The notes beneath the pieces were generated by a model. The model ran no database searches and had not been told where the DNA came from. It saw only the letters and a program-made list of their open reading frames with translations. A program made the translations under genes and the position numbers. A stretch of DNA of 35,895 nt from Folioceros fuciformis (lineage: Eukaryota), in contig JBNGIO010006223.1 in NCBI GenBank assembly GCA_049999805.1, positions 62,636 through 98,530 on the forward strand, given 5' to 3'. Positions 8,219 to 32,429 of the stretch are shown in pieces. Positions within the stretch are counted from its first letter, which is position 1. The number at the start of each line of letters is the position of its first letter.

Positions 8219-10949
8219 TCATAGAGGAATGACATAGACCCCATATGTCACTCCATAATGCTCGGGCTCTCGTCTATAACGTCCGGTCAGGCATATGAAG
8301 CTCCTTATCCGTTGTGTGCTGAACACAAAAGCCATGGTCGCTGTGAAGCCCAGAATGAAGCCAATACTCAGTGCTACATCTGACATAACCGGATCCGAGT
8401 GGTCAGATTCCTCTCCGAAATTGTGGCTATTATTTCCTTCAGTCCCTGACCCTCCTGATTTAATTGAGCAAAGCGGTAGTGGAGGACCACAGAGTCCAGC
8501 ATTTCCCGGCACAAAAGAAGAGCTGTCGAGACTACCAAATTGCCCGCCCGTGGGAATTGGGCCTGACAGATTATTCCACGAAACGTTGAACAAACTCATG
8601 AAATTTAGATTTGACAGGGTGGACGGAATGTTACCGGACAGCTGGTTGTGGCTCAAATCCAGGATCTCTATCATACGTAGCTGCCCTAACCTCTTCGGAA
8701 TTGGCCCATCAAGCTCGTTGTGGGAAAGGTCCAAAAATCTCATTCCAATGAGAACGCCAATTTCTTCTGGGATGGAACCCTGTAGATGGTTAGATGACAA
8801 GTCGAACGCTGTATTTGCCTTCAGGAGATACTGGAGTGGCTTCCCACTTAAGGGAAGACGTAGGTCTTCATATATAGTAAACTTTCCAACATCTTTGTCC
8901 ACCGTTGCATTTTGGAAACCTTTCAGGCCACTGAAAATCTCGATTGGAATGGTTCCAGTGAAAGAGTTTATTGGACAGCACCAGTGCCTGCAGCTGAGGC
9001 AACATTCCCAGCCAGTTCGGGACGGCCCCACTGAGATTGTTGCTTCCGAGATTCAACACGCGCAGATCCACAAGCTGCTGTAGCTCTAGGGGAATGCTTC
9101 CATTTAGCTGGTTCTCATGCATGTCTAAAATAACCAGGCCCGTGCAATTGCCCAAACTGGATGGTATACGACCAGACAAAGCATTTGATTGTATGATCAA
9201 AGTGCGTAGGCTCTTTGCGTTTCCTATACTCTCTGGAATGGGGCCTGGCATTGGGGTTGACACGACAAGCATTAGGAAGAGACTCTGAAGAGTCCCTGGA
9301 AGCAATATAATGATTAAATAAAGTTTGCAGTGTGCACGAACGGGGCAAGAGCAGATGTTACAGCACCTTCCACTTGGCTTTCTTGGAGAACGAACCTCTG
9401 CAGCGAACTCATATTTTCAAACAGCTTCCTTGGGATGAATCCGTATAGCCCAGAGGAAGACATCTCAAAATCTGTGAGGTGTGTCAACTTGGCAAAGTCT
9501 TCAGGAATGGAACCCTGTAGATTGCTTCCCCCGAGATGCAGTATTTGAAGGTCGGAGAGACTGACCAGGGAAGCCGGAAGAAGGCCTTCAAAGCTATTGT
9601 TGTTCAACTGGAGATTTTGCAACCTTGTCATGTTCCCAAACATATCGGGGATGGGTCCCGACAGGTTGTTATAGCTCAGATCCAACACTACAAGCTCCTG
9701 AAGCTGCTGAAAGCTGGTTGGTATGATACCAGTGAAGTTGTTCCTCGTAAGCCACAACTTGGTGAGTGGTAACCCTCCCAAGACGGAGGGCAGCATCCCA
9801 TTCAAATAGTTGTAGGGAACCTCTAATACGGATAGGCTCGATAGATTGGCGAACCAGTCAGGGATTGGTCCAGTGAAGTTGTTGCCGAAAAAGTGGAGCT
9901 CCGAAAGGGCGGTCATCTTGCTGATGCCTTCTGGCAGAGGCCCTGTGAACTCATTTACGCTTAACTCGAGAAACACCAAGATGACAAGCCTCTGTATGCT
10001 GGGCGGGATGCTGCCAGACAACCTGTTGGAGCGCAAATCCAAGTGTGTCAAAGAGGTAATATTGCTAACTGCTTCTAGGGTGATGGTTCCACTAGTGTTG
10101 AATGTGCTCTCTCCTAATGCTAGAAGGTATAACCTTGAAAGTCTGGACAATGACGTGGGGAATGGCCCACTTATGTTGTTCCACCCCAGATCCAGATACT
10201 CAAGGTTGCTGCAGTCGCCGATCTCGCTGGGAATCGGCCCTTCCAATCCACGGTGTTGAGATTGGTAGCCGTACCATTCTATGATTGCAAGATTTTTTAA
10301 CTGGCCAATGCTTGATGGAATCTGACCCCCGAGTTCACCGTTTCCTCCCAAGCTAAGTACTGTCAAGTTAGAACAATCCCCTATAGATGCAGGGAGGGAT
10401 CCGTTGAGCTGGTTGAATCCAAGTTCCAAGTACTGCAAGTTTTTGAGCATGCCAAGCTCGGCAGGAATGATCCCCGTCAGCTGGTTGTCCGACAATGAAA
10501 GCTGGACCACGTTCTGTAGGCCACCAATCGCAGGATGGATGGAACCGCTGAGCTGTTGGCCTGCCAACAACAAAGAAACCACTGTCCAAGTGCTGCCTGC
10601 CCAACCGCACTGGACACCGACCCAGTTGCAAGCAGCCCCAGCGTTGTCCTTTGTCCATTTCGCAAGGACACGTGATGCCTTGCTTAAAATCCAGCAGAAT
10701 GGACACCTCTGTTGCGTTCGAAGGCGCGTCATAGACATCTTGCAGCTTCCTTCCTTGGGTGGTGCGGTGAGCAGTGCAACAAGACGTATGAGCGTCGGCA
10801 AGTCTATTTGTGTGCTTGTGCGTGCCATTCCACCTACTTAGCTTGAACTGAGGTGACGACGCGAACGATGAAGCACAGACTCCTGGAGCGCCGACACCGA
10901 GATGCCGACACAAGATCCCCGCAACGAGAAGCAGCGGCAGCACCCCCAT
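8219..10949 (-). pseudogene. LRR receptor-like protein (signal peptide, LRRNT, ~20+ plant LRRs, island domain, TM helix, short tail) broken by three frame disruptions
   Basis: Signal peptide MGVLPLLLVAGILC; LRRNT EVSILLDFKQGIT/..LAKW..ACNWVGVQC; many LxxLxLxxNxLxGxIP repeats; GNAGLCGPPLPLC cap; TM VALSIGFILGFTATMAFVF; no kinase domain. The reading frame changes at ~10670, ~9296-9340 and ~8968. Confidence 0.85.
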
Positions 10950-11090: not shown

Positions 11091-12330
11091 CAGTCTCAAG
11101 CATCGGCTGTGCCTGAAATCCAATCTCTGCAGACGTTTCACGACGCAGAGAAGAACAGAGGCAGCATCTCGTGTGTGTGAAGTCGAATCCGTGCAGCCGA
11201 TGGTTCACAGTGATACGTTCTGCTGGTGACACGTCTCCGGCAGGAATCACAAGTCAATGAAGGTCTAGACGTTATCCAATCCCGGCATACGGAATGTTGG
11301 AAAAAGAGCTAAGACTTGCATACTACAGTAACTCAACAGCTTGTAATTTAATAGCAAATAACCCCCTTAGTTTCCTAAATAAAAAATATACAACATGCAT
11401 GCCCGGTAAACAAACCTTTCTGGCATGACATGCCAACACCTTTGTCGGCCCGATTCGGGCTGCCCTGCCGTGCCGTCTGGACTCACATTCCGTGCTGAAT
11501 AGGTCAACCGTGAGCAATGCCAATTCCTGTACATACTTAGCAGGCTAAGTGGCTGCAACATGGAGCGTTAGGGCGCGACGGGCCCCGAGCCCCAAGCCCC
11601 CAAGCGGGCCTGCCTGAAGGGGGAAATGGGAGCGCTCCAACAACGGCACTTGCAGCGGCAGCGGCATCGGCAGCGGCAACGGCCGCGGCCGCGCGTCTTC
11701 CAATAAAATTTGGTGTGCACGCTGGCAAGTCGTGAGACTCGCCAGTCAGGGCGCGCGATTCACACTTGCCATGTGGAACGACAACTTCACTGCAACACTG
11801 TAACAAGCACACGACAGCACTCGGACATGCAGCCAGCATTATATGCACGGATTCTTGGCTGCGCGGCCAGATTGGATACGGTCGCCTCCTCTTCATTCTG
11901 TGGATCTTCCGCATACACTCATGAATGCTCTCCTGTTCCCGCTTCCCCACGCCCTTCCAGCTCGGCGGCCATCCCCTCCGTCTTCTACCCGTGGTCACAA
12001 CCCCGGCTCCGACTCGTTACTCTCCTCCAAGCAAGCACTGTATGTATGTACACAGCAGCTCCAAGTCCAGCCCACGCCCACGCCCGCGCCCACGCCCACG
12101 CCCAGCCGCAGTTCGGACCGTCACTCTCCATTTAATTCGACTCTCAATTTATGTACGTCCCTTCGCCGTCCGGCACATCAGTCTCTGTCTCCCGCTTTTT
12201 ATATCCTGGGGTCCTTTTCTGTGCCGTGGTGTCGATTGGAGTGTCGCGGAGTGGAGTGCACCACCTACAACCCAGCTCCGCCGCCGTCTTCCGCATTCTG
12301 CCAATTTGCCACCTCCTACTTCTCCCCGCC

Positions 12331-15300
12331 ATGGAGTCCGCTTCGGGGGGCAGGCTCGACGCCGGCTCGCTCTCCGTGCGCCTCGCTCCCAGGAAGGGCT
12401 TCGGGAGCGCGGGCCAGCCCATCTACGTCGTCTCCAACTACTTCGTCGTCACATTTAAGCCCAAGCTCCTCTATCAGTACGACGTGAGCTCCAGCACCAC
12501 CACCCAATTCCACGCCCGCCTCTTTGCTCCAAATTGTCCTCGTTCTTGTTCTTTTAGGATGGCATCCCACCGCTGTATTCTTTTGCTCGCAATTGCGCTG
12601 CCCATCTGCGCACCAAGCTGCGCCGTCCTAATGCCAAGATTGCTCCCCCTCCTCCTCCTCCTGCTGTGCTGTTGCTGTTTCGTTCATGCCTTGCCTTTGC
12701 CGTAATTCTCCTGGCGCAGGTGAATATTACGCCCCAAGTCCCCAAAGGCCTGCAGAGAGCCGTGTTCGAAGAGCTGTGCAAGTTCGAGCAAGTGTTTCCC
12801 GACGGAATGCTGCCTGTTTACGACGGCCACAGAACTATTTATACGTCCCGGCCTCTCAAGGAGAAGGTGATCGATACCAAGGTGACGCTGCAGGAGCTGC
12901 AGTCCGGGGGGGGCCGAACGAGGAACCGGGATTTCGAGGTGGTGCTGCGGGCTTCGGCGCAGCCCGACCTCAGGCTGCTTCGCAGTTTTCTGTCCGGGAC
13001 AACGCCCGACCTGCCTTACGACTGCATCCAAGCTCTCGATGTTGTGCTCAAGGAGACGGCCACTCGTTGTGGGTAAGGCGGACCGGCCCCGCTCTCACTG
13101 CCTCACGCTTGCTGGATGCATGGGCTGCTCGCTCTCCTCCTCTGCTGCCACGGCTCCTTCGCTCTTCCTCAATTCTGTCTCCCCTCTTTGCGCAGCTTTC
13201 TGGCTGGGAAGCGTTCGTTTTTCGCCACATTGTTTGGCTCCACCAGCCTGGGAAATGGTGTGGAGGCTTGGAAGGGCTTTTATCAGTCTCTCAGGCCGGG
13301 GAATGACGAGCTGCTTCTCAATATAGGTGCGTGACTACTGCACTTTGCTTTCTCCAAATGTGTGTGGCTCGCCGGCTCGCCCGCTGCCTTGGCTCGGCTG
13401 GCTCATTTCCGCGGACTCTTGACATCTCGTGGCGTGCACAGATGTGTCTGCGCTGGCTGTATTAGAGGAGGTGCCGCTGCTCACGTTCTTGGAGAACGCG
13501 TGCAGAAAGGATGTGAGAGAATTGCACCGCGCCCTGCAAAGGCGCGATGCAGAAGGGGATCGCTTCCGTGTGCAAGTAGCGCCTTCTCTTGCTCTCCACT
13601 GCACCAACCCCCTTCATTGCCTCTGTCTTCCTTTGGACTAATGTGCCCCCCACCCTTCTTCGCAGATTAGGAAGAGCCTTAAGGGTCTTCGAGTAGCAAC
13701 CCTCCACGCGGCCAGACGCAAATATAAGATCCAAACCATCACGGATGAACCGCTGAGCGTCTTGAAGTCAGCAACTTACTCAAATTCCCCCGGTCCAAGG
13801 GAAACTTGTTTCACAGCTCTTTCAGGAGACTTGCATGTCGTAGGCTGATCACGGTTGTTGTCTGCATCAGATTTGATATGCAAGGAATTGAAATGACTGT
13901 GACCGACTATTTTGAGCAGAAGTACAATCAAAGGTTGGAGTTTCCTGGGTTTCCCGCCATTAACGCAGGCTCCAAGGAGAAGAAGAAGTACATCCCTTTC
14001 GAGGTACTTCATTTCGTTTTGACAAGGTTCGGGTGTCCTGTCTTGCCTTCAAAGGTTACTGAATTGAACAAATTTGGTGGCTCAGGTCTGTAAACTAGTT
14101 GGAGGTCAGCGCTTCATGAAGAAACTGGATGAGCAGCAGACGGACAAATTCAAGAATTTTACCATGGCCGCCCCTGGGAAGAGGCGTGCAGACTGCGAAA
14201 ATGTAAGCTCTTTGCGCCCGGCAGTTCCCCATAGAGTTCAATTTCACAACCGATAAGCACACGTCAGGGTTTTCAGAAGCATGTCCCTGTGTTCGTGTTC
14301 GTGCTACCAGTGGATGACTTGCATTCTGACTTGTGTGGTACATAGATGGCAAGGAACATTCACCACCAAGGTCGGAAATACGAGGAAGAGTTTGGCCTGG
14401 GTATGAATCCTGTAGGTGCCATAAAAGCAAGAGTTCTTCCAAAACCGAAGGTTATAAGCCTTTTCAGCTCGTCGCCATGGCTGACGCCGCTCTGGTGCAG
14501 AGATTTCTTTTCGTGAGTTCTCAAACATCCAGGGGGATTTTACAGGTGTGCTACAGCAATTCAGAGGCACAGATCAACCATGCGGGAGCGTGGAACCTAA
14601 GAAATACGGTATAGAGGTCTCCTGTTGCACTGTCAGCACGCTTGGGCTCTTTCTGGACTGCCTCACAATTGACAATGCATGCTGCCTTCCGAGAGGAATT
14701 CAGGTTCTCGTCGAAGGGTGCAAAATCAGCAACTGGACGTTGATCAATTTCGAGCCACGATTGGATGGTGGAGCTGTTCAGAATATTGTTGATACACTTC
14801 CCCGAGACTGCAAACGATATGGGGTGGTAAGTTCATGGTCCTGCTCGGCGCGGACTGCCTACAGTTGGATGACGTCTCCTAGTGAATCTCCTGTCACGTT
14901 TATGATTTCTCACATGTTCTGGGAATGTGTTAGGCTTTAAACCCATCTCCTGTAGTCGGCTGGGTCACCGAAAAGGGCCGAAATGTTGGAGCTGTCATTA
15001 AACATGTCTGGGATGAATGTCAGTCCAAGACCTCGAAGCACTTGGAGCTGTTGGTTGCGATCATGCCCTACTCAGGAGATAAAGAGATCTACAGTACGTC
15101 AGGAAATTTCTTATCTAAAAAATTGTGACAGCTTTCCTGCCTTGTCTGATTCCTGTTTTCTGGTGCTAGGATTAGACTGCGCTAATCACTGGATGGACAA
15201 CATTCTCTGTTCTGATCACTAGGTATTTTTCGTCCAGGATCTGTAAAGAAGATTTGTGAAATAGATTACGGTTTCCTATCTCAGTGCTGCAAGGCTGCAA

Positions 15301-17124
15301 ACATTGCAAATAGAAAGCCAAACTTTTTGGTTGGCTATCTGGCTAATGTGATCTTGAAGATAAATGCGAAGGTACACCTTCTGCACCTTATGGAATGGAA
15401 TGTTTTCATCTTGCAAATTGAGCGAGCTCTCATTACTGTTTTGCTTGCTTGCAGTGTGGGGGATTGAACTCTCTTCTGATGAATGAAAAGATGAAGCGAC
15501 TTCCTCGCATCTCTTCCAGCCCAACAGTCCTTATTGGCGCAGATGTATCACATCCACGCGTGGGGGATGACTCAAGTCCCTCAATTGGAGCTGTAAGTGA
15601 AGGCCAACTGCACTGTCACTGACTTGCCTTCGCACATCTTTTAGTTGCTACTCTTGTTGAGTTCCCTGTGCAGAGCTTTTTTTTTCCACTCCTTGTTGAT
15701 GTTGTCACAACCTGTTCACTGCAGGTTGTTGGGTCTGTGGACTGGCCACATTTTGCAAAATATGTGACGAAAGTTAGAGCACAGTCTCACCGCACAGAGG
15801 TGCTTGAAGATTTGTTCTGGGAGAAGACTGATGAACAAGGGAGGAAGCAAACGGGTGGTATTTTCAAGGACCTGCTGACCGTCTTCAAAGACAAGGTTTC
15901 CAAGAAGCCGGAGCAGATAATCTATTTCAGGTACGGTGCGCGATGTTTTCCTGCGTTTGTGATGAGATCATTCATATGGGAAGACGCCTCATTAGGCATG
16001 TCTGGCAGAGATGGTGTCAGTGAGGGCCAGTTTGACATTGTGCTGCGGGAGGAGTGCGATGCCCTCAGAAAGGTGGCTCTTTCCACTTTGTATGTGCAAG
16101 GACTTATTTGCATAAAAGTCTGCTCACTCCTGCTCACGCAGTATTGTACAGGCATGTGTCTCTCTAGGATGGGGAAGCCATGCGTCGGGCGCCCCTGGTG
16201 GGCCGGCTCAGAAAAAGTCTAAGATGGACACACCGAGGATCATCTTCATTGTTGTTCAAAAGAGGCATCATACTAGGTTGTTTCCATCGGAGAGCCGTGA
16301 TGATAAGCAGAATGTTCAGCCAGGTGATCTGTCTTGGGTTCCATTTCTTATTTACTGTATGTGAAGTTGATGTCAGTCAGTCACGCAGAAAGAGGTTCGG
16401 TGTGTCGGTCTAATCAGTGTTGTGGTTCAACATGGGCAGGCACCGTGGTGGATCGAACAATCTGCCAGCCCAATCATTTTGACTTCTTTCTTTGCAGTCA
16501 TGCTGGCCTTCAGGTGTGGTTGTTGGTTGTGACTCTGTGGCTGGATAGCGGACTTGAAGACGCCGCATACTTGCCACACTTTTGGTTGCAACGCGTTTGT
16601 GAAAAGTCGAAAACGCTGTGCAGGGAACGTCGAGGCCTGCACACTACCACATCTTACTCGATGAGATAGGGTTTTCTGCTGATGACATCCAGACTCTAGT
16701 GAACGAGTTGTGTTACCAGTAAGAGATGCTGAGAAATCTTGATTTGTCGCTGACCTTGCCTGTCTTTGGAACGCTGATCCAACCCAACCTTGTTCCGCGT
16801 CCGTGGGCATGCAGGTATGCTCGCTGTACCAAGGTGGTCTCCATTGGTAAGTGGTATTTTTTGAGAAAAATGTCGCTTGTCACTCGCAAGCTAACTCTCG
16901 TGTCTTGCACAGTTCCCGCGGTGTACTATGCTCACTTGGCTGCAAAACGAGCAAGAGATTGGATAGACTTTGAAGGATCTTGGGCCTCGGAAGGAGGATC
17001 TCACCAGGAGACCGGCAGTATTGTAAGCGCGGGTAGTGGAAGCGGGCGTGTGCGTGGAGCCTGCACCGTTAAACCCTTGCCCCAGATCCATGAAAGAATC
17101 ACGAAATCCATGTATTATATTTAA
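12331..17124 (+). CDS. AGO: Argonaute A (N, L1, PAZ, L2, MID, PIWI), 20 exons, intact, DEDH tetrad
   Basis: All exons join in frame at GT-AG sites: [155 protein letters not shown]. Confidence 0.97.
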
Positions 17125-17897
17125 GGCCGTCAAGTCTGAGGGAGCAATACGGTCCACGGGATTCATTGCGTTAAGGAATCCTGGACGCATAAACATTTCC
17201 CAAGTGATTGGCCGAGATTCTGATGGAGCGATCGCGCCAAGGCGTGTGGGACCATGTCCGGCACCATCTTCTGATGCTCACGTTCGCTTTCTGGGAATCG
17301 AGTTATCTTTTAACACCCTTGATACCAAGTATGCCCGACTTTGTGAGTGGATACCGCTGGTACATCTACGTATATTTATTAACTTGCAGATGCCCACAGA
17401 ATATATGCGGTCTTTCAGCAAACCAGCAGCACAGGCACTGTGCATACATACACATCATACACCAGTCACCCAGCTCAAAGTCTAATAGCGACCATGAAAT
17501 GCACGTCACACATGGGACAGCAGCCAGGGGAATGCAGCATGTTTCAGAACGGGTAAGCACCGTAAGCAGACACATTGCATTTGTAGCTCATCAGGACTTG
17601 TAACTTCAACTGGACCTACAACATCTCTTCCGACAGTGGTCGACATCCTGCGTTCAGCTACGTCTACTCAGCGTTTGCACTCGTAGCGCCGATGTGGAAT
17701 TTACTCTCCAATTCCGAGTACAAAAGAAAATTCAAGAACCGAAAATTATGTCACTTCTGATAAGAAAGAGCGTGTTGCGTGCTCTCGCGCACTTGCACAC
17801 ACCTCTCTCTTCCCCTTCCCGAGGAGCCTAACCTCTACAGTCCACATACTATATTATGTAGATACTATCACGAGACCAGTGGCCTCAATACCTGCTC

Positions 17898-20800
17898 CTA
17901 AATGAAATACATATGTCGTTTCAGTTTCTCGTTGATCACAGGCAGTGGCCGTACGGGTCCCAGCGCCCCACGAGCTCGTGCGGAGCGGCTTGAGTTGCTT
18001 CCCACATTACTGTCTACATCAGGTCGTGAACTCCCTCCGTCAGATAGGGCATCATAGTCGATCCAAATCCGAGCTCGGGTCGCAGCGAGATGCGCATAAT
18101 AGCAGGCTGGTACTGCACATGCGTCTCACATGGATTACTAGTCTTACAATCAGGTGGCGATTCACATTACAAAGTTATGCATGGATTTTGCACTCACAAC
18201 AAGTGACCATAAGTACTTACCAATGGACACGGCTCTTGGACAGCGAGCATAGCTGCCACAACCACAACGAACGTGTGAGAAGGTACATCATAGTTACATG
18301 AATTATAGTAGAAATGTGTGCCTAATTTAGTCACTTACTTGTGGCAAAGGTCGTTGGTGAGTTTCTGGATTTGGTCAGCAGAAAACGAATTCTCGTCGTG
18401 GACAACATGATAATGTGCAGGCCTGCTTGTCCCCTACAGGAATTGTGATGTGGATCACTATTTAGTAGCTCATTACTCTGAACGCGCAAAGAAATAATGA
18501 AAAAAACCAATATTGCTACAACCTGAATCCCCAAATGGCTGCAAAGAAAGAAGTCAAACTGGGTGGGATGGCAGATTACAGAATCCACGACAGTTCCTGT
18601 ACACACATAGACAGCTTCAAAATGATAACAACAAAATCAACAGGCTAGCTAGCTGACAAAACTAGCCAGACGACCCAACCTGGAAAAATGTTCCCCGTTT
18701 TTTGGGTTTTTCGGCGATCCCTTGGAAACAGACGAGTATGGTGTTGTTTCTGAACGACAATGAAGGTTATCTTGGGAGTAATGTCATTCTCCGATGCGCG
18801 TTGCTTCTTAGGAGCTGGCTCCTCTTGTCCAGGTTGTTGAACCCAGCCAAGAGCCTGGCATGCCTGTCAGTGGTTCACGACGCAGGGTTTAGCACAATTG
18901 CATTTCCATAAGGCCAAGCCCTTCTGAATGTACCCGAATGTACAGAGTGTGGTATACCGCTTTCACGGACTCCAGTTCTTGCTTCATGACAGCTTCAAAT
19001 TGTCCATCGCTTACTCCGTCTCTGCAAATCACCGTTCAAGTCCTGCAAAAGCTGATCGACAATTTCCAGGCACAAAATGGATTGTATGCCAAACCTGTAG
19101 AAGAGTATTCTCTGTGGTCGTTTTCCTGTGTTCCTCGCAAATGATGCCAAGAGATCCCTGCCAACCCCCAAAAAACCAATGCTCATATTCAGCTTGTAGA
19201 TGTACTGACATGAGAAAGAATATTAGAACCACGCAGCAAAAGCTTCTTGGCCTGTATGAAGGACTCCGGGAAAGTGGTTTTGCAACAGAAACTGCGTTCA
19301 GGAGACAAACTTACATTACGATGCCTCCAGATTCCTTTTGCCCCTCGTCATTCACTCTTTCCCAATACAGGTCGTCTAGAATTTCAGTTCGATGGGCTTG
19401 GCTTCGTGTCAGAGTCTCATATCTGGAGAGATTCGGCCAGTCCATGCTGGCAACCACCTGCAGAACGAAGGAGGTCAGCACATGTCAATCTAGATACTAC
19501 ATTACAGGGATGTCGACTGTCGTATGAAAAAGACTGTGAAATGCGTACGTACCGCGGCGATGGACGGACTACGGTCGTCTCCAACTCTGGGATGCGACAC
19601 ATCAGCACCGATGACTATTGACGGGACATCAGACAACAAGGGAAGTGGTCTAGAATTCACGTCCACCAACAGTGCATTGTTTCCCCCTAGCTGCTTGGAC
19701 ATATTCAGAAATCGGTGAAATCGGATCAGTAAATAGGCTGGGCATGAGCAATACTAGTTCTGGAACAGAAAATCTGGATAGTCAGCTTGTTATCAAGCCA
19801 CGTCGTTTACCTTCATGTTGATCTTAAGGATAACGTTCTGGACGTACGCTGGAAGACATTTTTTAAGTGCCTCTCCAGATTTCAGACACTGCGTCATGAA
19901 TCCGAGCTCGACATCACAAAGCTTCTTGACCGCTCCTGAACGGCATTCCAACACTTTTTTGAACAGCGTTGAAAGATTTCGCCATACTATGACAGAAAAG
20001 TCTAGCTTCAGCGTTCTTAAAATTGGTGAACCAGTTCACAGGGACTTACCGTACATTGCCTTGTTCTCCATGGTGGTGGGCAGGATGCAGATCAACAGCT
20101 CCAAGTCTCTACCAGTTTTGTCTTTTGCTTCCTTGCAGATGTGGTGGATGGTTTTCTCAACGTTCCCCCTCCGGTCTGCTATCCAAGGGCAAGCCATCTT
20201 TGGATTGATATCCTGTACGCAACGACAATCAGTTAGGAAGCAGCTAGGTACCGTATCTTCCAAGCGGAACAACTAAAATCGAAGAGCACCCTTTCGCAAC
20301 ATACCAAGCCGTAAACGATGCAGTTTCTCACAAATGTCGAAATAAAGTGCTCTATTGCATTGTCACTAAGCTGTGCGGCGAAACTGATTAACGTCCACTG
20401 TTTGATGACGGAACTCCTGAACATCGTCTTTGCAACAGTAGCCATTATACAGATTTCAGAATCCTTGTTTCGCTAGGACCTACACTGTAAAGCGGTTTTA
20501 AAGATCAGGGAAGTTTTCAGATGGATGAACCGTACCTTCCCATTCATTTTCCACCAGCCCTCTTCAGGAAGAACTTCTTGCCGTTGTCCATATAGGATCT
20601 GGAACACATCCGTACAGAGAAGTTCAGACGTGGGGGACGTTCAGAAAGTTGGAAGGACCTATCTGACCGGACCTTGGGTGCAGGCAATATTCGTCCTGTG
20701 ATTTCGGCCATCCGACTGCTGACTCTAATACCGAACTCTTCGGCATAGGTGGCGCTGGCGTTTATGCTTCTCTTGGCAATCTGCATTTCAGGTGTCGAAC

Positions 20801-22904
20801 AAGTTAGGTGGGGCAAGATACAAAATAACAGGGAGCTATCCAAACTTACGTTGTTTGTCTCTTCCAATCTATCCGCTGGTCTCGAGCACGTCATCCTCAG
20901 CAAGGCATCAACCTGTGCTTCGTTGAGTTTCTTTGTGTGGCGCTGACCACGCACAATTCTGCACAGCTGTTCAAGGCCGTCGACTTGGTATTTGCATTGA
21001 CGTCTGCTCTAGACATCTGCATCGACTTTTGGGGCGCATCTGGTTTTGCAATATGGGGTAAGTATGCTCACCTCCATGGGTATGTACGTTGACTTCTCCT
21101 TTGTACCGACTTCAATAGCCGGCAGCCCAGCAAGGATGATGCCGTGATTATGGCGCTCTCTAAAATACTGAATGATACCGATTCTTGTTCCATTGTGATC
21201 GAACCTACAACGTTCACCAGAGACCAAAGAACAAACGCGATGTCATCCAAAGGGATACCGGGTTCCATAAACCCGTTGAGTCGTATGCGTATACAAAGCA
21301 GAACCTGTCCCGCGCGAAGCAACTTGAGAGAGTAAGTGAGGCTTACGACAGTTCGGAGAGGGGGACATTCGTGACGTTCTGGATTCGATATTTGCGTTTG
21401 GTTCCGTAGATGAGCTCAACTCGAACTCCTTTGAGGAGCTTCTTGATCTGTATGCACGTCAGATGTACAACATCAAGCGTGGAGCGTTCTTTTTGGCTGG
21501 GACGGAAAAATGGACAGCTCTCTGAATTGGGCTCCTACTTTCACTCGTGATGCGTCGCCACGACCATCAGGCCCTTGTAGCTCCTTGTTCATCTCGTTGA
21601 TATCAACTCTCAAAGCTTTTGCGATGTAGTCAGGCAAGAGATCTGGCTCCAGGAATGCGTTTGCGGAGATGTCTGCCATCCCCAGCGAAAGTCAGCTGGC
21701 TTATGTTACATGAAAGCTAACGTCATGCATTTCGATGATCTCATGCGTCATCACAAGGTAGCTCTCTGTTCCACCATGCACAGGCACCTAAGAGAAACTG
21801 AGAAACTGCCACCAAGATTAGTCACAGACAGTCGAGCAGGTAGGATGCAAGGACTCTCGTACCTATGTTGAGAATGAGCTTGCCGTTTTGTGCAGGCCGA
21901 ACCGACTGGTAAAAGCCTTTCCAAGCCATAACCCCGTTGCCAAGAGATTTGTTCCCAAAGCATTCATCAAAGAAGGACCTCCCGCCTGGCAAGAATCTGC
22001 ACATCAAAGTCAATCGAGCCGATGAGAATGAAAGAAAGCGGACAAGGAAGGGAAGTGTACAGAAGGTTCATGTCTAGAGTAAAATATGGGCAGATTCCGA
22101 CTTACCTTTTTGTTGCAGACTCACGTAGCACAATGTCTAGGGCTTGCAAGGCCTTCTGGGGAAGAATGGGAACGGTGCCCTCAAGAAAGGCTCGCAACTG
22201 AGCCAGATCGACCCTAGAAGCCTCCCTCAAAATCACGTGAAATGAGCGATTTTTCCTGCAACAGAGGAAATCGATGAACAAATAGTAGTGTGAACCCGGC
22301 CCCAAAGAACCGAACAGTGGAAAGAAGCAGTGAAGAACCTCAACACTACTTACCGGGTTCTGACGACCGGTCCATCGCTGTCGGTGTTTTCCGGCAACGT
22401 GATGTCGAGCTCAACTTGCTCAATGGGCAGAGGCTTAGCAGTATACAAACTCTTTTGTCCATCATAGGCGGGGAGGGCTCCACCCAGCTTCTCCATGCGG
22501 TACTCAGCCACCAGCGCAGTCATCACAGCTCGATTGAGCCCCCTTGGCACATCCGGGGAGATAGTAACCTGCAAGAATCGATATAGCATCCAACGTTGGT
22601 AGACGGACTAACTAGCCGGAAGCCAATTCGACGTGCCGCATCACTGAATCATCCTATGCGATAAGATGCTTACGTCGTAATGGTAGAGGAGCTTAGGAGT
22701 GAACTCGATGAGGTAATGATTCGCCAAAATTTTCACGGGATCTCCCACTGAGCCGTGATTCGGTCTCCTCGCCAGACTTGGTTTCGAGGCCGCCATGGAT
22801 CTGATATTCGGGCTGGAGGTGGTAGCAAAATCACCACGCGGTGTGTCTGGGCCCATTCGCTTCCTGGAGGCGAACCGCGGCGGGGAGGCCATAGTGGAAA
22901 GCAT
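17898..22904 (-). CDS. AGO: Argonaute B, 22 exons, intact, DEDH tetrad (ATG at 22904 or 22892)
   Basis: In-frame spliced exons: [156 protein letters not shown]. Confidence 0.97.
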
Positions 22905-23479
22905 CCTTCCAGAACTTGCTGTGGCACTAACGATCAGCTGTGTCACTCCAGAGCCGGAGCGTAGATGTAACAGAGGTCACTCAGCTAGCACCAACGTCTA
23001 TGTAGAAATATCTACGAATGGGACCGCGGACGTAAGCGACACCGAAGCCACCGCACGTCTAGACTGCAACTTGAAGCGATCTAACAAGACTGCAAACTGT
23101 GGAGCATCACCAGAAAGCAGAGCCGGGCAATTGTACCGGAGCGTAACCAGGAGCAGAAGCAAGAAAGAGCAGGGGAAGATTGCGGCTGAGGAGAGCGCAG
23201 CAGATCTAGAGCTCAGAGCGGATAGCGCATCAGAGATGGAGACGACGGAGAGGAGGGGAGAGCGCCGCACAAAACAAAGGAAAGCATTGGCGAAATTTGG
23301 TTGCAGAATGCCAGGCACGGGCAAGGCCGGCTCACTCAACCTTGAACTACACCCTCACTGTCTGTGACATGATCACGTACGCTTGGCGCCAGTGCACGTC
23401 GGATCGTCTCTGGGCGTATCAGAACCGGTTGGTATCCCTTTGTACCGTCTGCACCACGCGCGCGTACGTCACTTGGAAC

Positions 23480-23660: not shown

Positions 23661-24830
23661 TCACGTCCCTTGCTTACATGTACAATAACCCCAAGCGGTT
23701 CCAGCACCACTCACAATATTTTTGCGTGTTGTCCCATTGTCCTGAGTGTTGACATAAGTAATATTTGGAGAGTCTGGAGTTGGTAAGACCACATGGTTGT
23801 CTAATATGGCTATTGCTTTTTGGAGAGCACTCCGCACAATGTTTTCTTGCTTGGAATTTCGAAGCATGCCAACTGCCTTACATTGGGCTACATACCAAAA
23901 GTGCCCGATAACCTCTTCGAACAAAATATGCAGCAGCCAATCCAATCGCCGATTACTAAGCGTTTTCTTGGAGGGCAAACATCTGTACTTCAGATGTTTG
24001 TGATATGCTTCTATGGACGAGTTGTAATCTTGTTTGGCATGTGGAATTGTCCTAATTGCTTTAATCCACTGTAGCATGTTAAAACCCCACTAGTCTTTAA
24101 AATACTTCACAAAGCTGCTAGCAAACTCCTGAAAGGTAGTTTGGATGCACGCTTGGTTTATGTCTACCCCAACATCAATGTCCATATGCATGATGTCACC
24201 TAAGGATTTCATACTTGCATACCAAGTGTCGAGTGCTGCAACCAAGCCCTCCAAACATGCCATAGACACAAGAAAACCAGCACGTTACTTCCAAACACAG
24301 ACTTAATGCCATTTATTTCTGCCATACAATCATTTACCAGAAAAGCGGTTGCCAATCTAACCTATGTAGAAGCATCCTTGCTCGTAAGGATTCCAGCCAC
24401 TATGAAATATTGGCTGCCGTAGCCTTGCTGGTAATCACCCAAGCAACAGGGATATCGTTAAAATGGTCGTAAAAAACCAATAGAATGAATAGCTAGAACT
24501 CCACTTATGGGTGCCAAATGTGGCATCCATAGATATCACTGACTTATGACCCAGACGTAACATGGAGTGTAACTAAAAATCTATTTGGATGCCTAACATA
24601 AAATCTTTGGCATGTAGTTCTTCTCCTAGCAAAGGGAAAAATACCTCCTCCCTGCGGACATCCGTCCATAGCTTGATAATCACCTCATCATTTACATGGA
24701 ATCGCCACACCCTGGAATCCAACTCTGCTTGCAAATTCCTTATATCTCCAGGCAACAAAAAAATTATCCTGTTCAAGGAAAAAATCATCTCGCTCAAGGA
24801 CTGCTTACACATCATGATGATTCCTTAAAA
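23661..24830 (-). mobile_element. Degenerate Mutator-like (MULE) transposase with start of a SWIM zinc finger
   Basis: Minus-strand fragments in the expected order: VISMDATFGTHK (first D), FLVND..AEINGIKSVF..FLCLWHVWRAW (second D region and CxxH), DYNSSIEAYHKHLK (E), YCTCKQG (SWIM start). Interrupted by stops and frameshifts; AT-rich. Confidence 0.8.
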
Positions 24831-24911
24831 ACTATTAGAAATGAATAGTAGTTTAGGGCAACACATCAAAAGGATAATTGTTCCAAATTAATTTATGCCA
24901 TATCAGAGAGT

Positions 24912-25216
24912 GGTAGAAGAACTTTGCTTGTAGTTTAAGCAAGGTTATTACTATAGAACAGATGGTGTATAGAATAGTAACATGNNNNNNNNNNAGCAAG
25001 GTTATTACTATAGAACAGATGGTGTATAGAATAGTAACATGGTGACCCTCCGGTAGAAGAACTTTGCTTGTAGTTTAAGCAAGGTTATTACCATAGAATA
25101 GATAGTGTATAGAATAGTAACATGGTGACCCTCCGATAGAAGAACTTTGCTTGTAGTTTAAGCAAGGTTATTACTATAGAATAGATACTGTCTAGAATAG
25201 TAACACGGTGACCCTC
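24912..25216 (+). repeat. 83-bp tandem repeat (about 3.5-4 copies) spanning an assembly gap, probably within the copia LTR
   Basis: Unit ggtagaagaactttgcttgtagtttaagcaaggttatta..atagaatagtaacatggtgaccctcc; ggtgacc recurs at 25041, 25124 and 25207. Confidence 0.88.
24985..24994. other. Assembly gap (10 N)
   Basis: Run of n characters inside the 83-bp array. Confidence 0.99.
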
Positions 25217-25370
25217 TAGTATACAAGGGGTCATGGCCACACTCTATAGTGTAGTGGTGAATAGATAAGCATCAGTGTTTGAGCTGATTCAGCTTGTACA
25301 TGTTGTCCACCCTCCCATGTCTTGTAAAATATTTCCCCTCAATAAAGGCTAGATTCATATATTTCTAACA

Positions 25371-25383
25371 CGGTATCAGAGCC
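25371..25383 (+). promoter_or_regulatory. Primer-binding site complementary to the initiator Met tRNA 3' end
   Basis: cGGTATCAGAGCC directly after the LTR-terminal CA (canonical TGGTATCAGAGC). Confidence 0.8.
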
Positions 25384-25488
25384 ATGTTCTAGAGCCTAAG
25401 TAGTTTTCTCTTGGTCAGTATAGTTGTGTACTCGTGTCAACACCTCTTTTGCATAGTTCTTAATAGAGTGCTAGAAAGAACTCGTGTG

Positions 25489-27458
25489 CAAATGCTAACA
25501 ATGGAGAAGATCTCTAGAACATGGTATCAAAGCCATGTTCTAGAGCCTAAGTAGTTTTCTTTTGGCTAGTATAGTTGTGTACTCGTATGAACACCTCTTT
25601 TGCATAGTTCTTAGCATAGTGCTAGAAAGAACTCGTGTGCAAATTGTGAAGGTATTGATAGTATTCATTCTATAGCAAGAGGTTGAAATTCGAGAGGATA
25701 TAATAGATGGCGTCAACAAGCATGGAGACACGTTTCATTCAGACATGCTCGATGGAGAAGTTTGGAGACAAGAACTTCACACTATGGAAGTTAAAGATGA
25801 AGATGCTTCTCATTGACAGAGAAGTATGTAAATTCGTCAACAAGGGTCTCGAAGACACACCCACCGAAGGAGACCTTGATAAGGATGGACGAGCATTAGC
25901 TGCAATCCTTCTTAATGTGTCTGATGACATACTCTCTCAATTGAGTGAGTGTGCAACATCGAAGAAGGCATGGACTACCCTTTGCGATATGTATGAAAAA
26001 AGAAGTATGTTGAGTGAGATGTTTTTGGAGTAACAACTGTCCAACTTCAAGATGGTTGAAGCGGACACGATTCAACAGCACGTCAACAAGTTGAAGAACT
26101 TGGCCTTGAGATTTTTTAGCAAGGCTAGGTACAAGGTGTACATCCTTTATAGTACCTTTGGACTTTTTACTAAGTAGTGTTATCTTTATGACACCTTTCC
26201 CTTAAATCTCGTGTGATGTGTTATCACTAAGCGCTAATGTGTTATTACTAAGCGCCACCTTATGCCATGTTGGCATTTCTTTGTAGCTCGAGATCTAGGG
26301 TCGGTTGTAGGTAAAGTGTTGAGATGCTTCAGAGTCTAGGTATAGACTCTCATCCTTCCTTGATGAGCAATCTCCCACTATCTCTATTGTTGAAGCATAA
26401 AAGAGATTTTCATCCCGCTCACTTACTTGATTGGCTTGTGATTGTTTTCCCTTCTTCAAGTCAACCAATCTTGTCCTACAGTCTTTTGCATGATGGTTAG
26501 GTTTCTTACAGTAATGACAAGTACCCCATGTCTTTTTCTTTGTAACTTTCTCCTTTAATCCTTCATTGGAGTTGTCATGTGAGGTCTTCCCTTTGTGTTT
26601 TTCCTTTCCTTGAAAAAAGTACCGAGTCACCTTTGTATTCATTCTCGAATGCATTCACTAGCTTCTCTTGTAGAAGCAACCCAACCACCTCTTCTATTGT
26701 TGCTTGTTTATTACTTGAATGCATCGCCGCTGATGTCCTAAAAGACAACACAAACTACATGTACGCAGATGGTAAACTATTCAATAACAGCATAATAATC
26801 CTTCGTTTAGAAGGTTTGATGTCTATAGCTTGCATTTGATCAACCATGTTCTTCAACTTATTGACGTGCTGTTGAATTGTGTCCGATTCAACCATCTTGA
26901 AGTTGGACAGTTGTTACTCCAACAACATCTCACTCAACATACTTCTTTTTTCATATATATCGCAAAGGGTAGTCCATGCCTTCTTCGATGTTGCACACTC
27001 ACTCAATTGAGAGAGTATGTCATCAGACACATTAAGAAGGATTGCAGCTAATGCTCGTCCATCCTTATCAAGGTCTCCTTCGGTGGGTGTGTCTTCGAGA
27101 CCCTTGTTGACGAATTTACATACTTCTCTCTCAATGAGAAGCATCTTCATCTTTAACTTCCATAGTGTGAAGTTCTTGTCTCCAAACTTCTCCATCGAGC
27201 ATGTCTGAATGAAACGTGTCTCCATGCTTGTTGACGCCATCTATTATATCCTCTCGAATTTCAACCTCTTGCTATAGAATGAATACTATCAATACCTTCA
27301 CAATTTGCACACGAGTTCTTTCTAGCACTATGCTAAGAACTATGCAAAAGAGGTGTTCATACGAGTACACAACTATACTAGCCAAAAGAAAACTACTTAG
27401 GCTCTAGAACATGGCTTTGATACCATGTTCTAGAGATCTTCTCCATTGTTAGCATTTG
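25489..27458. repeat. Long inverted repeat: arms 25489-26103 and 26844-27458 (~615 bp each), ~740-bp spacer
   Basis: The arms are reverse complements with only about 7 mismatches seen by eye; the ORF track shows near-identical proteins on opposite strands. Confidence 0.95.
26295..27458 (-). mobile_element. Inverted second copy of the same copia element: PBS, gag, zinc knuckle, start of protease
   Basis: gag ATG at 27240, premature TAA at 26914, CHYCKKPNHHAKDC (CCHC knuckle) and YLDSEASQH (degenerate LDSGAS protease motif) in ORF 26295-26654. Confidence 0.88.
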
Positions 27459-27459
27459 G

Positions 27460-27750
27460 ATCTTAGCATCCCTAGATATCATTGACTTGTGACCCTAACG
27501 CAACATGTACTGTAACTGAAAATTTGTTTGGATGCCTAACATAGAATCCTTGGCATGTAGTTCTTCTTCTTGGCAAGGGAAAAATACCTCCTCCGTGTGC
27601 ACATCCATCCATAGCTTGACACTCATCTCATCATTTATATGGAATCGCCACACTTTGGAATCCAACGCTATGTGCAAATTCCTTATGTCTTTAGGCTGCA
27701 AAGAAATCATCCCGCTCAAGGACTGCTTGCACATCACAATGGTTCCTTAA
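27460..27750 (-). mobile_element. Second, diverged MULE transposase fragment (paralog of ~24530-24830)
   Basis: MMCKQSLSGMIS..DIRNLHIALDSKVWRFHINDEMSVKLW..MLGIQTNFQ versus MMCKQSLSEMIF..DIRNLQAELDSRVWRFHVNDEVIIKLW..MLGIQIDF. Confidence 0.75.
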
Positions 27751-28268
27751 AAACATCTTAGACTCATGGTCAATCAGGATTTGAAAAGTAGTCATCTTGT
27801 GGAGCAACAGATAAAGGAGCAAGGGTACAATTTGAAGTTAAATCACTAACTAGCAAACCATGACAATACTCTCCTGTGCTCCCTTTGATGTAGTCTCAGT
27901 TCACCAACCTCAGAAAACATCTCCAACTGTATTACAAATAACAACAACTGCTCCCTTTGCCTAGCTTTGGCTTGTTAGTGATGTGCGCACGAATTGCAAA
28001 ATCTGGAGGAGTTTGCTTTGGATAGCCATAAGCATAGGCAAACTTGATGTAGTGCCGAGGAGTGGTAGATGAAATTCCTCTTTTGCCTCACATCAGATCT
28101 GGTCCAAACATTAGTAGCCCTTATCAATTATTTGGGGAAGAATGTCGACTTCTCTTCGCCAGCAATGAAATCTGGGTACTTCATCTAGGGAATGTAGCAA
28201 CGTTTCACACAAATCACCGTCTGCCGAACAAGATGCTCACCATCCTGCCAATTCAATGTCTCCTAACA

Positions 28269-31618: not shown

Positions 31619-32429
31619 GGCTCGCTGCTCGCCTTCTTCTCCCTTGTTCTCGACTCCCCGTCAAGTTCTTTTATCCTACACTACCTGGCCTACTTTCCTG
31701 CACGTCGTGTGGCTGCATTCAGTGAACCTGAAAGGTTCTCCTTCAGGAGACTCTGTACTTGCATACATCCATATAACGTGACCTCCGTAGATAGATAGGA
31801 TATTCCATTCTCTCTGAAGGACCCCGCCGGTACACGTGGAATACTACAGTACGTACGCGTGACCTTATTCATACAACTCCTTATTTCCTCACAACTCCCC
31901 GCTTGAATCTTTGGAAGGCAGCGGTCAGGCGTGACATGCCAAACTTTTTTCAGAAAATTATTTTCTATTGTACTTGCTTTTGCCATCATGACAATTCAAA
32001 ACAATTCAAAAACTGCCTTGCCTTCTTGGGCCCCCCCTTCCCATACTGCTGTTCGACTCCAGCCTCCTCTTGGCACTTCGTGTGGTGAAAGGCTCTCCCG
32101 CGACATTCCTCATCCATGAAGAATCATCTTGCAAGCAACAAAGCTTAATTGGAAATCTCCAGAGACACCATCAATACCCCCAGTCAATACACGACCAGCG
32201 TAGTGCGCTGGGACAAGGCATATAGGGGAAAGAGCGAGGGGAGCTGGATTCCATTTGGCCATAGAGGAGTAGCACCGAAGGAGGGGCAAATCCCGTGACG
32301 GCCACAGAAACCCGAATGATGCCCATGTTGCCGCACCCCCTGCTGGTTGGTGGAGTGGGCCTTCAGCTTGTAGAGCGAAATAGCCTTTGGAACCTCTGCG
32401 GAACTATGGTCGCCGCTTCGCACACTGGG

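Follow-up and report, generated by a model that had tools for sequence, protein, structure and literature searches.

What kind of Argonaute carries a basic loop in its PIWI domain, and what might such a loop be for? The question is raised by two Argonaute genes, AGO-A (forward strand) and AGO-B (reverse strand), that lie tail to tail as an adjoining convergent pair in the window analysed here (the whole 35,895-nt stretch of Folioceros fuciformis DNA; Table 1). A preliminary description had proposed that both proteins share a PIWI insertion in which only a short basic motif has been selectively kept, that this motif is functional, and that both act in the nucleus although they do not look like AGO4.

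Table 1 Features of the AGO-A/AGO-B locus (positions are those of the window)
Feature	Position	Strand	Basis
AGO-A gene (mRNA)	12047..17345	+	3205-nt spliced X1 contig, 0 mismatches
AGO-A CDS, 20 exons, 899 aa	12331-17124	+	splice model
AGO-A insertion-bearing PIWI exon (ACVSLGW...NVQP)	16152..16323	+	translation and splice model
AGO-A insertion	16167..16229; Trp codon 16170-16172; core PAQKKSK 16203-16223	+	translation, alignment
Spacer between 3' ends of AGO-A and AGO-B transcripts, 376 bp	17346..17721	.	ends of the two X1 contigs
AGO-B gene (mRNA)	17722..23300, 5' end past 23300	-	3459-nt spliced contig of run X1, 0 mismatches
AGO-B CDS, start MAASKPS, 898 aa, 22 coding exons	17898-22796	-	splice model and X1 contig
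AGO-B insertion-bearing PIWI exon (ACQALGW...NIFPG)	18680..18863	-	X1 joints 18596/18680 and 18863/18958
AGO-B insertion proper, 20 residues	18789..18848; Trp codon 18843-18845	-	translation and alignment gap in 34 non-clade rows
AGO-B basic core PAPKKQR	18798..18818	-	translation

The gene structures come from splice models and from run X1, whose RNA label is a guess and which was used solely for what its spliced contigs bridge. The introns among the listed X1 joints are many and short (69–157 nt). For AGO-B, 14 of the 15 listed joints agree with the splice model and the remaining one was set to the contig; an alternative in-frame ATG further upstream, at about window position 22904, would add 36 amino acids. 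The 20 model exons of AGO-A plus its UTRs sum to 3205 nt, exactly the size of its X1 contig. With 46% identity overall, the two proteins are deeply diverged paralogues.

AGO-A and AGO-B form a clade of six sequences with P0004, P0007 and two gymnosperm proteins (Wollemia P0005 and Ginkgo P0006). This clade has a support of 100 in a FastTree phylogeny (78 rows), and the value is the same in an IQ-TREE analysis (40 rows) that leaves out the insertion columns, where its long stem persists. AGO-A and AGO-B are monophyletic with the gymnosperm proteins and lie outside AGO1/5/10, AGO2/3/7 and AGO4/6/8/9, in a sample without a named fern or lycophyte member. P0004 is the AGO-A orthologue (74% identical), whilst the two gymnosperm proteins show about 46–50% identity. 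In a profile search of representatives the score of P0005 was 1699 bits and that of the second-best representative 863, the whole clade being a single 50% cluster (P0005) at this level. A separate profile search, in which 8000 candidates were scored, returned mostly AGO1/5 and animal Argonautes, which served as controls, with P0004 as the only clade member. The judgement that the two proteins are not AGO4-like is borne out by this placement, which sets them apart from the group bearing the QKNHHTK signature, presumably the mark of AGO4-type proteins. AGO4/6/8/9 proteins are defined by clade and by a nuclear localisation signal (NLS) near the N-terminus; AGO-A and AGO-B are placed separately, and their short N-terminus contains no K[KR]x[KR].

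The clade itself, which the preliminary description missed, has been published. You et al. (2017, Genome Biol 18:158; PMC5569507) describe AGO-like as a fourth land-plant Argonaute clade, which angiosperms have lost and which occurs in hornwort, lycophytes, ferns and gymnosperms; two of its entries, Ffum115433 and Ffum14883, are from F. fuciformis. Compared with the supplement of that paper, exons 1–2 of AGO-B are identical, by eye, to the first ~250 nt of Ffum115433, and the peptide of the AGO-A upstream ORF matches the start of Ffum14883. On these 5' parts (the first ~400 nt are available), AGO-A and AGO-B appear to be the same genes as Ffum14883 and Ffum115433, respectively. It is very likely, as far as structure and evolution are concerned, that AGO-A and AGO-B are the two hornwort members of the AGO-like clade. 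The statement in PMC7994812 that the AGO-like clade is absent from bryophytes is contradicted, because this hornwort window holds two AGO-like genes.

Both genes comprise colinear full-length exon chains, and both proteins contain GADVSH, HRTE, RDGVS and YYAHLAA. The catalytic tetrad (D600, E641, D686, H837) occupies invariant columns in the alignment, and PMC5569507 states that catalytic residues are kept in the AGO-like clade; AGO-A and AGO-B carry the D-E-D-H tetrad of eukaryotic Argonautes. Precomputed Pfam domains of P0004–P0007 include PAZ and Piwi, and the AlphaFold2 (AF2) model of P0004 matches both AtAGO10 (7sva; E 1e-84, TM 0.92 by target length) and human AGO2. The N/PAZ/MID/PIWI architecture is present, and the bilobed fold is predicted from the model of this orthologue.

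Is the insertion real? The AGO-B insertion with PAPKKQR exists as claimed, as part of a 34-aa peptide encoded by a single exon segment (18762–18863, reverse strand). The range first given for this peptide (18775–18863) has its start right but reaches only as far as ...DITP. The AGO-A counterpart was read from the translation of 16152–16346 (forward strand). The extra residues could in principle stem from an intron that went unnoticed or from a mistake in the assembly: the preliminary description worked from raw DNA, and the AGO-B gene is rich in short introns. The spliced X1 contig, however, leaves the AGO-B exon uncut, with zero internal joints and 0 mismatches, and the insertion is for this reason coding sequence rather than a retained intron. 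The reading frame is, moreover, open and conserved, and P0004 and the Wollemia sequence, both transcript-derived, also retain the loop. Such an artefact, which has a vanishingly small probability, was ruled out for AGO-B by the X1 contig and for AGO-A by the exact match to contig size. Sliding of a splice acceptor site as the origin of the loop was dropped, as five conserved codons (ACxxL) stand 5' of the insertion within the exon. The 61-aa translation of the AGO-B exon matches Pfam Piwi with an E-value of 4.4e-6 (26.6 bits, which for this fragment is under the 28.9 cut-off); a homologue search with the same 61 residues among longer proteins gave no candidate with three words in common.

The position of the loop follows from alignment to solved Argonaute structures. 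The segment after the insertion aligns with human AGO2 residues 695–704 (EKDYQPGITF) and with AtAGO10 residues 820–830, and this alignment identifies a true insertion of ~18–19 extra residues after the leucine equivalent to AGO2 L694. So aligned, the loop is flanked by the counterparts of L694, a residue of Trp pocket 1, and P700, a residue of pocket 3, and it starts at its N-terminal end with Gly-Trp; neither the Trp-pocket position nor the Gly-Trp start had been noticed in the preliminary description. In the AF2 model of P0004 (pLDDT 91.4), a helix ends at residue 710, residues 711–733 form a coil and a strand runs from 734. Mean pLDDT values for successive blocks of 701–740 are 96, 78, 59 and 96, and because the basic core falls in the block at 59 it is predicted to be the most flexible part of the loop.

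An insertion of 16–20 residues is present in all six clade sequences, Wollemia and Ginkgo included. Elsewhere this part of PIWI is of near-constant length: the distance from DGV to VVQK is 35–43 residues in 230 of 235 anchored Argonautes, the longer ones being the four database members of the clade (53–57) and the unrelated P0235 (52), which lacks both LGW and a basic core. No named angiosperm match from our non-exhaustive searches has the long loop. Within the insertion, AGO-A and AGO-B have in common only G-W, P-A, K-K and one K/R (by BLASTP and MAFFT), as first reported. LGW is kept in six of six clade sequences, as is K[KR]x[KR], whose six copies align with one another, and the fuller PxxK[KR][^DE][KR] in five of six (P0007 has no leading Pro), counts that rest on six sequences without a fern or lycophyte. 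The polar or acidic spacer between LGW and the core, by contrast, varies in both sequence and length. The proposed selective retention of a short motif is thereby upheld, and a check on orthologues agrees, the motif being kept in the 74%-identical P0004 and in the two gymnosperm proteins. Outside the clade, P..K[KR][^DE][KR] is found anywhere in the protein in only 2 of 240 Argonautes, whereas the looser K[KR]x[KR] is found in 106 of the 240. Clustering of basic residues, assessed by shuffling within each insert, gave P values of 0.02–0.11 per sequence. We are highly confident, for the structural and evolutionary part of the reading, that this is a clade-defining PIWI surface loop with a Gly-Trp start, a variable spacer and a conserved P-x-x-K-(K/R)-x-(K/R) core.

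Conservation of this kind might nonetheless reflect a tolerated lineage-specific remnant without specific function, in which LGW is retained for packing against the domain, and the basic residues by common descent or to meet a general need for solubility or charge. That so few insert residues are common to AGO-A and AGO-B, against 46% identity protein-wide, is in keeping with this, as is the frequency of K[KR]x[KR] among Argonautes in general; the conservation counts, moreover, are not independent, since they derive from just six related sequences. A remnant does not readily account for a core that keeps its place in the alignment among paralogues of 46–52% identity and in gymnosperms whilst the adjoining spacer changes, nor for the near absence of the strict motif elsewhere, and we think it rather improbable.

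What, then, might the core do? Patterns used to recognise NLSs include the PSORT 'pat7' rule and Kosugi class 2, (P/R)xxKR(^DE)(K/R). The monopartite NLS consensus is K(K/R)X(K/R), and the c-Myc NLS is PAAKRVKLD (as cited in PMC5288373); K-(K/R)-X-(K/R) is matched by all six clade sequences, and in the 898-aa AGO-B the PAPKKQR core is the sole occurrence of K[KR]x[KR]. Only 24–37 residues precede the N-domain xNHF motif in the clade, compared with 83–218 in 10 of 13 other plant AGOs (xNHF was not found in the other three), and the NLS motifs of AGO4/6 lie near the N-terminus (bioRxiv 10.1101/2022.01.18.476847). The core would be an exposed linear motif acting as a classical monopartite NLS for recognition by importin-alpha, and would let Argonautes without a long N-terminal extension enter the nucleus. 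Judged by its sequence, this is the likeliest single function of the core, although we put it forward only tentatively; the nuclear localisation of AGO-A and AGO-B first suggested is plausible.

Several observations tell against an NLS. A block pLDDT of 59 indicates flexibility but not clear disorder, the motif has three basic residues only and acidic neighbours, and a leading Pro is missing from the core in P0007. Matches as short as this frequently turn out not to work: of eight monopartite classical NLSs predicted in P. sojae, not one was sufficient (PMC5288373). Docking into the importin-alpha groove may be sterically hard, because the core lies 3–8 residues before a buried beta-strand. 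An NLS also leaves unexplained why the loop sits between residues of the Trp pockets and why its Gly-Trp is invariant. A bipartite NLS using the downstream RDRRKTQK was considered and dropped, that sequence being 27 residues away in a folded part. A phrase search of the literature found no paper on an NLS within a PIWI domain.

A role in tuning GW-partner binding is a serious rival, since the loop sits between the L694 and P700 equivalents and starts with Gly-Trp. The loop would remodel the Trp-binding pockets of PIWI: the invariant Trp, which stands two residues beyond the pocket-1 Leu, would fold back to fill pocket 1 or 3 in cis, the core would set the charge around the pockets, and the GW/WG partner would be selected in this way. 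In human AGO2 the key residues are L694 and K660 for pocket 1 and R688 for pocket 3, and K660A/L694Y abolishes TNRC6 binding (bioRxiv 10.1101/2025.10.18.683247); pocket 3 is formed with the help of C691 and P700 (PMC9262622). By alignment, the insertion begins right after the L694 equivalent and ends before that of P700, which places a Trp conserved throughout the clade beside pocket-lining residues. As read from sequence, the equivalents of L694, P700, L650 and F653 are present in all six proteins and K660 as K/R in five. Plant AGOs offer a precedent for a self-filled pocket, W785 of AtAGO1 and W732 of AtAGO10 occupying pocket 2; this pocket-2 Trp is itself kept in the clade (SxDWP, W623 of P0004), 88 residues before L711, like W732–L820 of AtAGO10 (an inferred offset). 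In AtAGO1, siRNA amplification depends on positive surface charge near the pockets (bioRxiv 10.1101/2025.10.18.683247). The first block of the loop is better ordered in the model than the basic core (pLDDT 78 against 59), but 78 is not the sign of a firmly docked side chain, and a patch of charge would not call for so strict a motif as PxxK[KR]x[KR]. On balance we regard a role at the Trp-binding surface as possible but on the unlikely side.

The NLS and the pocket could also be combined. By analogy, the loop might be a built-in switch in which Trp plugs pocket 1 or 3 in cis, keeping the loop against PIWI, until small-RNA loading or a competing GW partner releases the loop and exposes the NLS core. 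This is a distinctly doubtful proposal; if true, nuclear import of an AGO-like RISC would be coupled to its loading or partner state.

The AGO-like clade has persisted in non-flowering land plants whilst being lost in angiosperms, and the window documents two diverged AGO-like paralogues, tail to tail, in a hornwort. A 2023 review (PMC10671604) holds it important to characterise which small RNAs AGO-like proteins load, and in the literature searched we found no report of a cargo, partner or localisation for the clade. A clade-defining loop with an NLS-like core and a Gly-Trp near the GW pockets provides concrete handles on clade function, bearing on a nuclear role and on the use of GW partners relative to AGO1 and AGO4. 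The insertion is not described in the main texts of PMC5569507, PMC7994812 or bioRxiv 10.1101/2022.01.18.476847, although the domain alignment in Fig. S3 of PMC5569507 may show it; the supplement of PMC7994812 yielded neither the loop-start sequences of the clade nor AGO-like.

Set beside known systems, the loop occupies, by sequence alignment, the same fold position as human AGO2 residues 694–701 (LEKDYQPG), but the span from Leu to strand is ~7 residues in canonical AGOs and 23–27 in the AGO-like clade. As with W785 of AtAGO1, W732 of AtAGO10 and the GW pockets of human AGO2, a conserved Trp is found near pocket residues on the exterior of PIWI; the two Arabidopsis residues, however, sit in pocket 2, whereas the AGO-like Trp lies, by alignment, elsewhere, after the pocket-1 Leu. 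The c-Myc NLS shares P-A-x-K-[KR]-x-K-hydrophobic-D with AGO-A (PAQKKSKMD) and P0004 (PARKKHKID), but the clade core, unlike a classical monopartite NLS, is inside a loop of a folded domain and near a strand. Short conserved basic motifs have likewise been proposed for nuclear targeting of plant AGO4/6 and AGO1/10 (bioRxiv 10.1101/2022.01.18.476847), those of AGO4/6 near the N-terminus and that of the AGO-like proteins in a PIWI loop of a different clade. The switch, finally, would resemble that of AGO4, whose NLS becomes exposed on loading, except that here it would be part of PIWI, in a clade lacking an N-terminal extension.

The extra PIWI segment is real in both of the convergent Argonaute genes of the window, AGO-A and AGO-B (see table). 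For AGO-B, the range 18775..18863 in the preliminary description was correct at its 5' end (18863) and stopped 13 nt short of the peptide quoted at its 3' end. Alignment with solved structures matches a ten-residue segment to human AGO2 695-704 (EKDYQPGITF) and to AtAGO10 from residue 820, which indicates that some 18-19 residues are extra; these sit immediately past the leucine equivalent to AGO2 L694. The two inserts have few positions in common, as had been claimed, with only G-W, P-A, K-K and K/R aligning in the extra segment. The sole K[KR]x[KR] match in AGO-B lies in the loop; AGO-A has a second, KRAR at residues 841-844, besides that of its loop.

Features of the window (window positions) and clade proteins from the databases
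Feature	Positions	Strand	Details
AGO-A CDS	12331-17124	+	20 exons, 899 aa
AGO-B CDS	17898-22796	-	22 exons, 898 aa
X1 contig, AGO-A	12047-17345		3205 nt
X1 contig, AGO-B	17722 to past 23300		3459 nt
AGO-A counterpart loop peptide	16152-16346	+	by translation
AGO-B loop peptide	18762-18866	-	by translation; frame stays open beyond
AGO-A upstream extension	12136-12330	+	65 codons
AGO-B upstream extension	22797-22904	-	36 residues
LRR ORF	9314-10837	-	long
LRR ORF	8219-9052	-	long
142-aa ORF	23661-24089	-	CxC...H-like end
AT-rich block	24000-28000		GC 0.39-0.40
834-aa ORF	29156-31660	-	uninterrupted; IF-2B family domain (E 2e-68), APH-type kinase domain (E 9.5e-13)
P0004			EukProt entry, transcript-derived; loop ALGWGSEAPAGEPARKKHKIDETPKITF
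P0005			Wollemia nobilis transcript; loop ALGWAEQPETGSDEGPSSKRLRLGKSPMVTF
P0006			Ginkgo Gb_34718; loop ALGWAEQPQTSQAGEPSHKKPRIGKSPQVTF
P0007			EukProt entry; loop SLGWGSGLHNGQNDDSQVKRSRAGDSLPKVTV

Gene models were assembled from chains of ungapped tblastn matches, with P0004 as guide for AGO-A and P0007 for AGO-B, after which GT/GC-AG introns were chosen. The sole public sequencing run that contains the stretch, X1, whose kind we guessed to be RNA, gave two contigs on 12000-23300 with 0 mismatches; introns are absent from both, and the AGO-B joints show CT..AC ends on the plus strand. Among the joints listed (25 others exist), 14 of 15 agree with the models, and the intron at the fifteenth was moved by 6 nt to fit. 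The AGO-B insertion exon lies between joints 18596|18680 and 18863|18958 and has no internal cut in the contig, while for AGO-A, whose insertion-exon joints fall outside those listed, exon lengths and UTRs sum to exactly the length of the contig. The uncut exon and the length match together indicate that the extra residues belong to the spliced form.

A word search with an AGO-A ORF returned four proteins, P0004-P0007, and the same kind of loop is found in all four. When a profile of these proteins was searched against 1.84 billion cluster representatives, P0005 scored 1699 bits and the runner-up 863, which places the whole group in a single 50% cluster, clearly separated from every other Argonaute. 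Together with AGO-A and AGO-B they form one clade with support of 100 in FastTree (78 rows; P0103-P0170 were limited to lengths of 780-1150 aa) and again of 100 in IQ-TREE (LG+G4, quick search; 40 rows picked by hand, with the insertion columns dropped). The clade stands apart from the AGO1/5/10/18 group, from a group that includes a Cuscuta 'AGO2-like' protein and from a group with the signature QKNHHTK, which we take to be AGO4-type; that neither protein looks like AGO4 thus agrees with the trees. AGO-A is 74% identical to P0004 and 46% to AGO-B, AGO-B is 52% identical to P0007, and both are 46-50% identical to the gymnosperm proteins. In the tree, AGO-B, the AGO-A lineage and the lineage of P0007 and the gymnosperms form a trichotomy. 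The pair lies tail to tail (12047-23300), with transcript ends 376 bp apart, and is either an old duplication still adjacent or a local one diverging fast.

How specific is the loop? When 246 Argonautes from word, profile and representative searches were aligned to the clade profile, both anchors aligned in 235. The distance from DGV to VVQK is 35-43 residues in 230 of these (37 in 176), 53-57 in the four database clade members, and 54 and 56 in the AGO-A and AGO-B models; in P0235, an unrelated protein, it is 52, without LGW or the basic core. LGW and K[KR]x[KR] occur in all six clade loops, the latter in a single aligned block, and P-x-x-K-[KR]-[not D/E]-[KR] in five (Ser replaces Pro in P0007), counts that measure conservation rather than independent events because the six sequences share kinship. 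Shuffles within each insert recreate the four-residue pattern in 2-11% of trials. At any position, this pattern is present in 106 of 240 non-clade Argonautes of at least 600 aa, and the seven-residue pattern in two. AGO-A and its orthologue P0004 keep GWGS, PAxKKxK and the next Asp around differing spacers (SHASGAPGG vs SEAPAGE). Conservation of the motif in orthologues, which the preliminary description had proposed as a test, is supported and extends to gymnosperms across the six sequences, and we consider it very probable that the loop is conserved, functional and clade-defining.

The genes and the clade are already known. You et al. 2017 (PMC5569507) described a fourth land-plant Argonaute clade, 'AGO-like', and their Table S2 assigns two F. 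fuciformis transcripts to it, m14883 and m115433. Within the first ~400 nt in supplement file 2, Ffum115433 matches AGO-B exactly, by eye, over exon 1 and the junction of exons 1 and 2, and the start of Ffum14883 encodes a peptide identical to that of window ORF 12136-12705, an ORF that leads into AGO-A. These 5' matches indicate that the window genes are either the AGO-like genes already published for the hornwort or copies almost identical to them; the window contradicts the statement in Wang et al. 2021 (PMC7994812) that the clade is missing in bryophytes. According to a 2023 review, the small RNAs bound by AGO-like proteins await characterisation (PMC10671604). The Ffum14883 CDS begins upstream of the AGO-A start MESASGG, which is backed by P0004, and the unconserved extension probably represents 5' leader that happens to be in frame. 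The published AGO-B transcript's CDS likewise begins at an upstream in-frame ATG, and the added residues include an R-K-R cluster, which is no match to K[KR]x[KR]. We found no description of the loop in the searched literature on the clade; the alignment in You et al. Fig. S3 may display one. The word 'insertion' has 0 occurrences in the main texts of PMC5569507, PMC7994812 and bioRxiv 10.1101/2022.01.18.476847, and a phrase search of the literature found no paper locating an NLS in the PIWI domain.

Upstream of AGO-A, two ORFs rich in leucine-rich repeats (LRR_1, LRR_8 and related families) are probably a single receptor-like gene. The 142-aa ORF at the border of the AT-rich block had no Pfam match at E 0.001 and is possibly a transposon remnant beside the AGO-B promoter side. 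The 834-aa ORF, with a domain of the IF-2B family that we take to include methylthioribose-1-phosphate isomerase, sits in DNA of GC 0.59-0.60; the adjoining AGO genes are intron-rich.

An AlphaFold2 model of P0004 (97-row alignment; mean pLDDT 91.4, pTM 0.91) has AtAGO10 7sva as its best structural match (E 1e-84, TM 0.92 by target length). Around the loop it has a helix at 690-710, coil at 711-733 and a strand from 734, with block pLDDT of 96 (701-710), 78 (711-720, LGW), 59 (721-730, PARKKHKID) and 96 (731-740), suggesting that the loop juts out flexibly, with its basic part the least fixed. By alignment, the loop begins with an invariant Gly-Trp immediately past the equivalent of L694 and stops short of that of P700. 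In human AGO2, K660 and L694 have key roles in Trp pocket 1, as does R688 in pocket 3, and K660A/L694Y abolishes TNRC6 binding (bioRxiv 10.1101/2025.10.18.683247); pocket 3 also involves C691 and P700 (PMC9262622). In AtAGO1, siRNA amplification requires a positive surface round the pockets (bioRxiv 10.1101/2025.10.18.683247). By reading of the sequences, equivalents of L650, F653, L694 and P700 are kept in all six clade members, that of K660 is K/R in five, and that of R688 is R in two and K in four. Given its position and its Gly-Trp, the loop could plausibly act as a cis plug, as a new patch of charge or in both ways. In plant AGO1 and AGO10, the protein's own Trp fills pocket 2 (AtAGO10 W732, AtAGO1 W785); this residue is seemingly kept in the clade, as W623 in P0004, 88 residues from the pocket-1 Leu just as in AtAGO10, so that the clade would have two conserved Trp at the GW-pocket surface. 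We consider it possible, but less likely than not, that the loop acts mainly at this surface.

The basic core may instead, or in addition, be a putative monopartite NLS, the two readings being compatible and not mutually exclusive. An internal signal would offset the short N-terminal region: 24-37 residues precede the N-domain xNHF motif in the clade, against 83-218 in 10 of 13 other plant Argonautes (motif not found in three). Against a signal count the minimal match of the core to the consensus, its tethering a few residues from a strand in the predicted model, and the finding that in P. sojae each of eight predicted monopartite signals proved insufficient (PMC5288373). We put a working NLS at somewhat under an even chance, and the nuclear role proposed for both proteins from sequence is a reasonable hypothesis that faces a serious rival at the GW pockets. 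The core fits the traditional monopartite NLS K(K/R)X(K/R), and in AGO-A and P0004 it resembles the c-Myc signal PAAKRVKLD (both as given in PMC5288373). AGO1 and AGO10 reportedly carry distinct conserved NLS motifs of their own, and those of AGO4/6 lie near the N terminus (bioRxiv 10.1101/2022.01.18.476847), whereas the candidate signal of the clade is internal.
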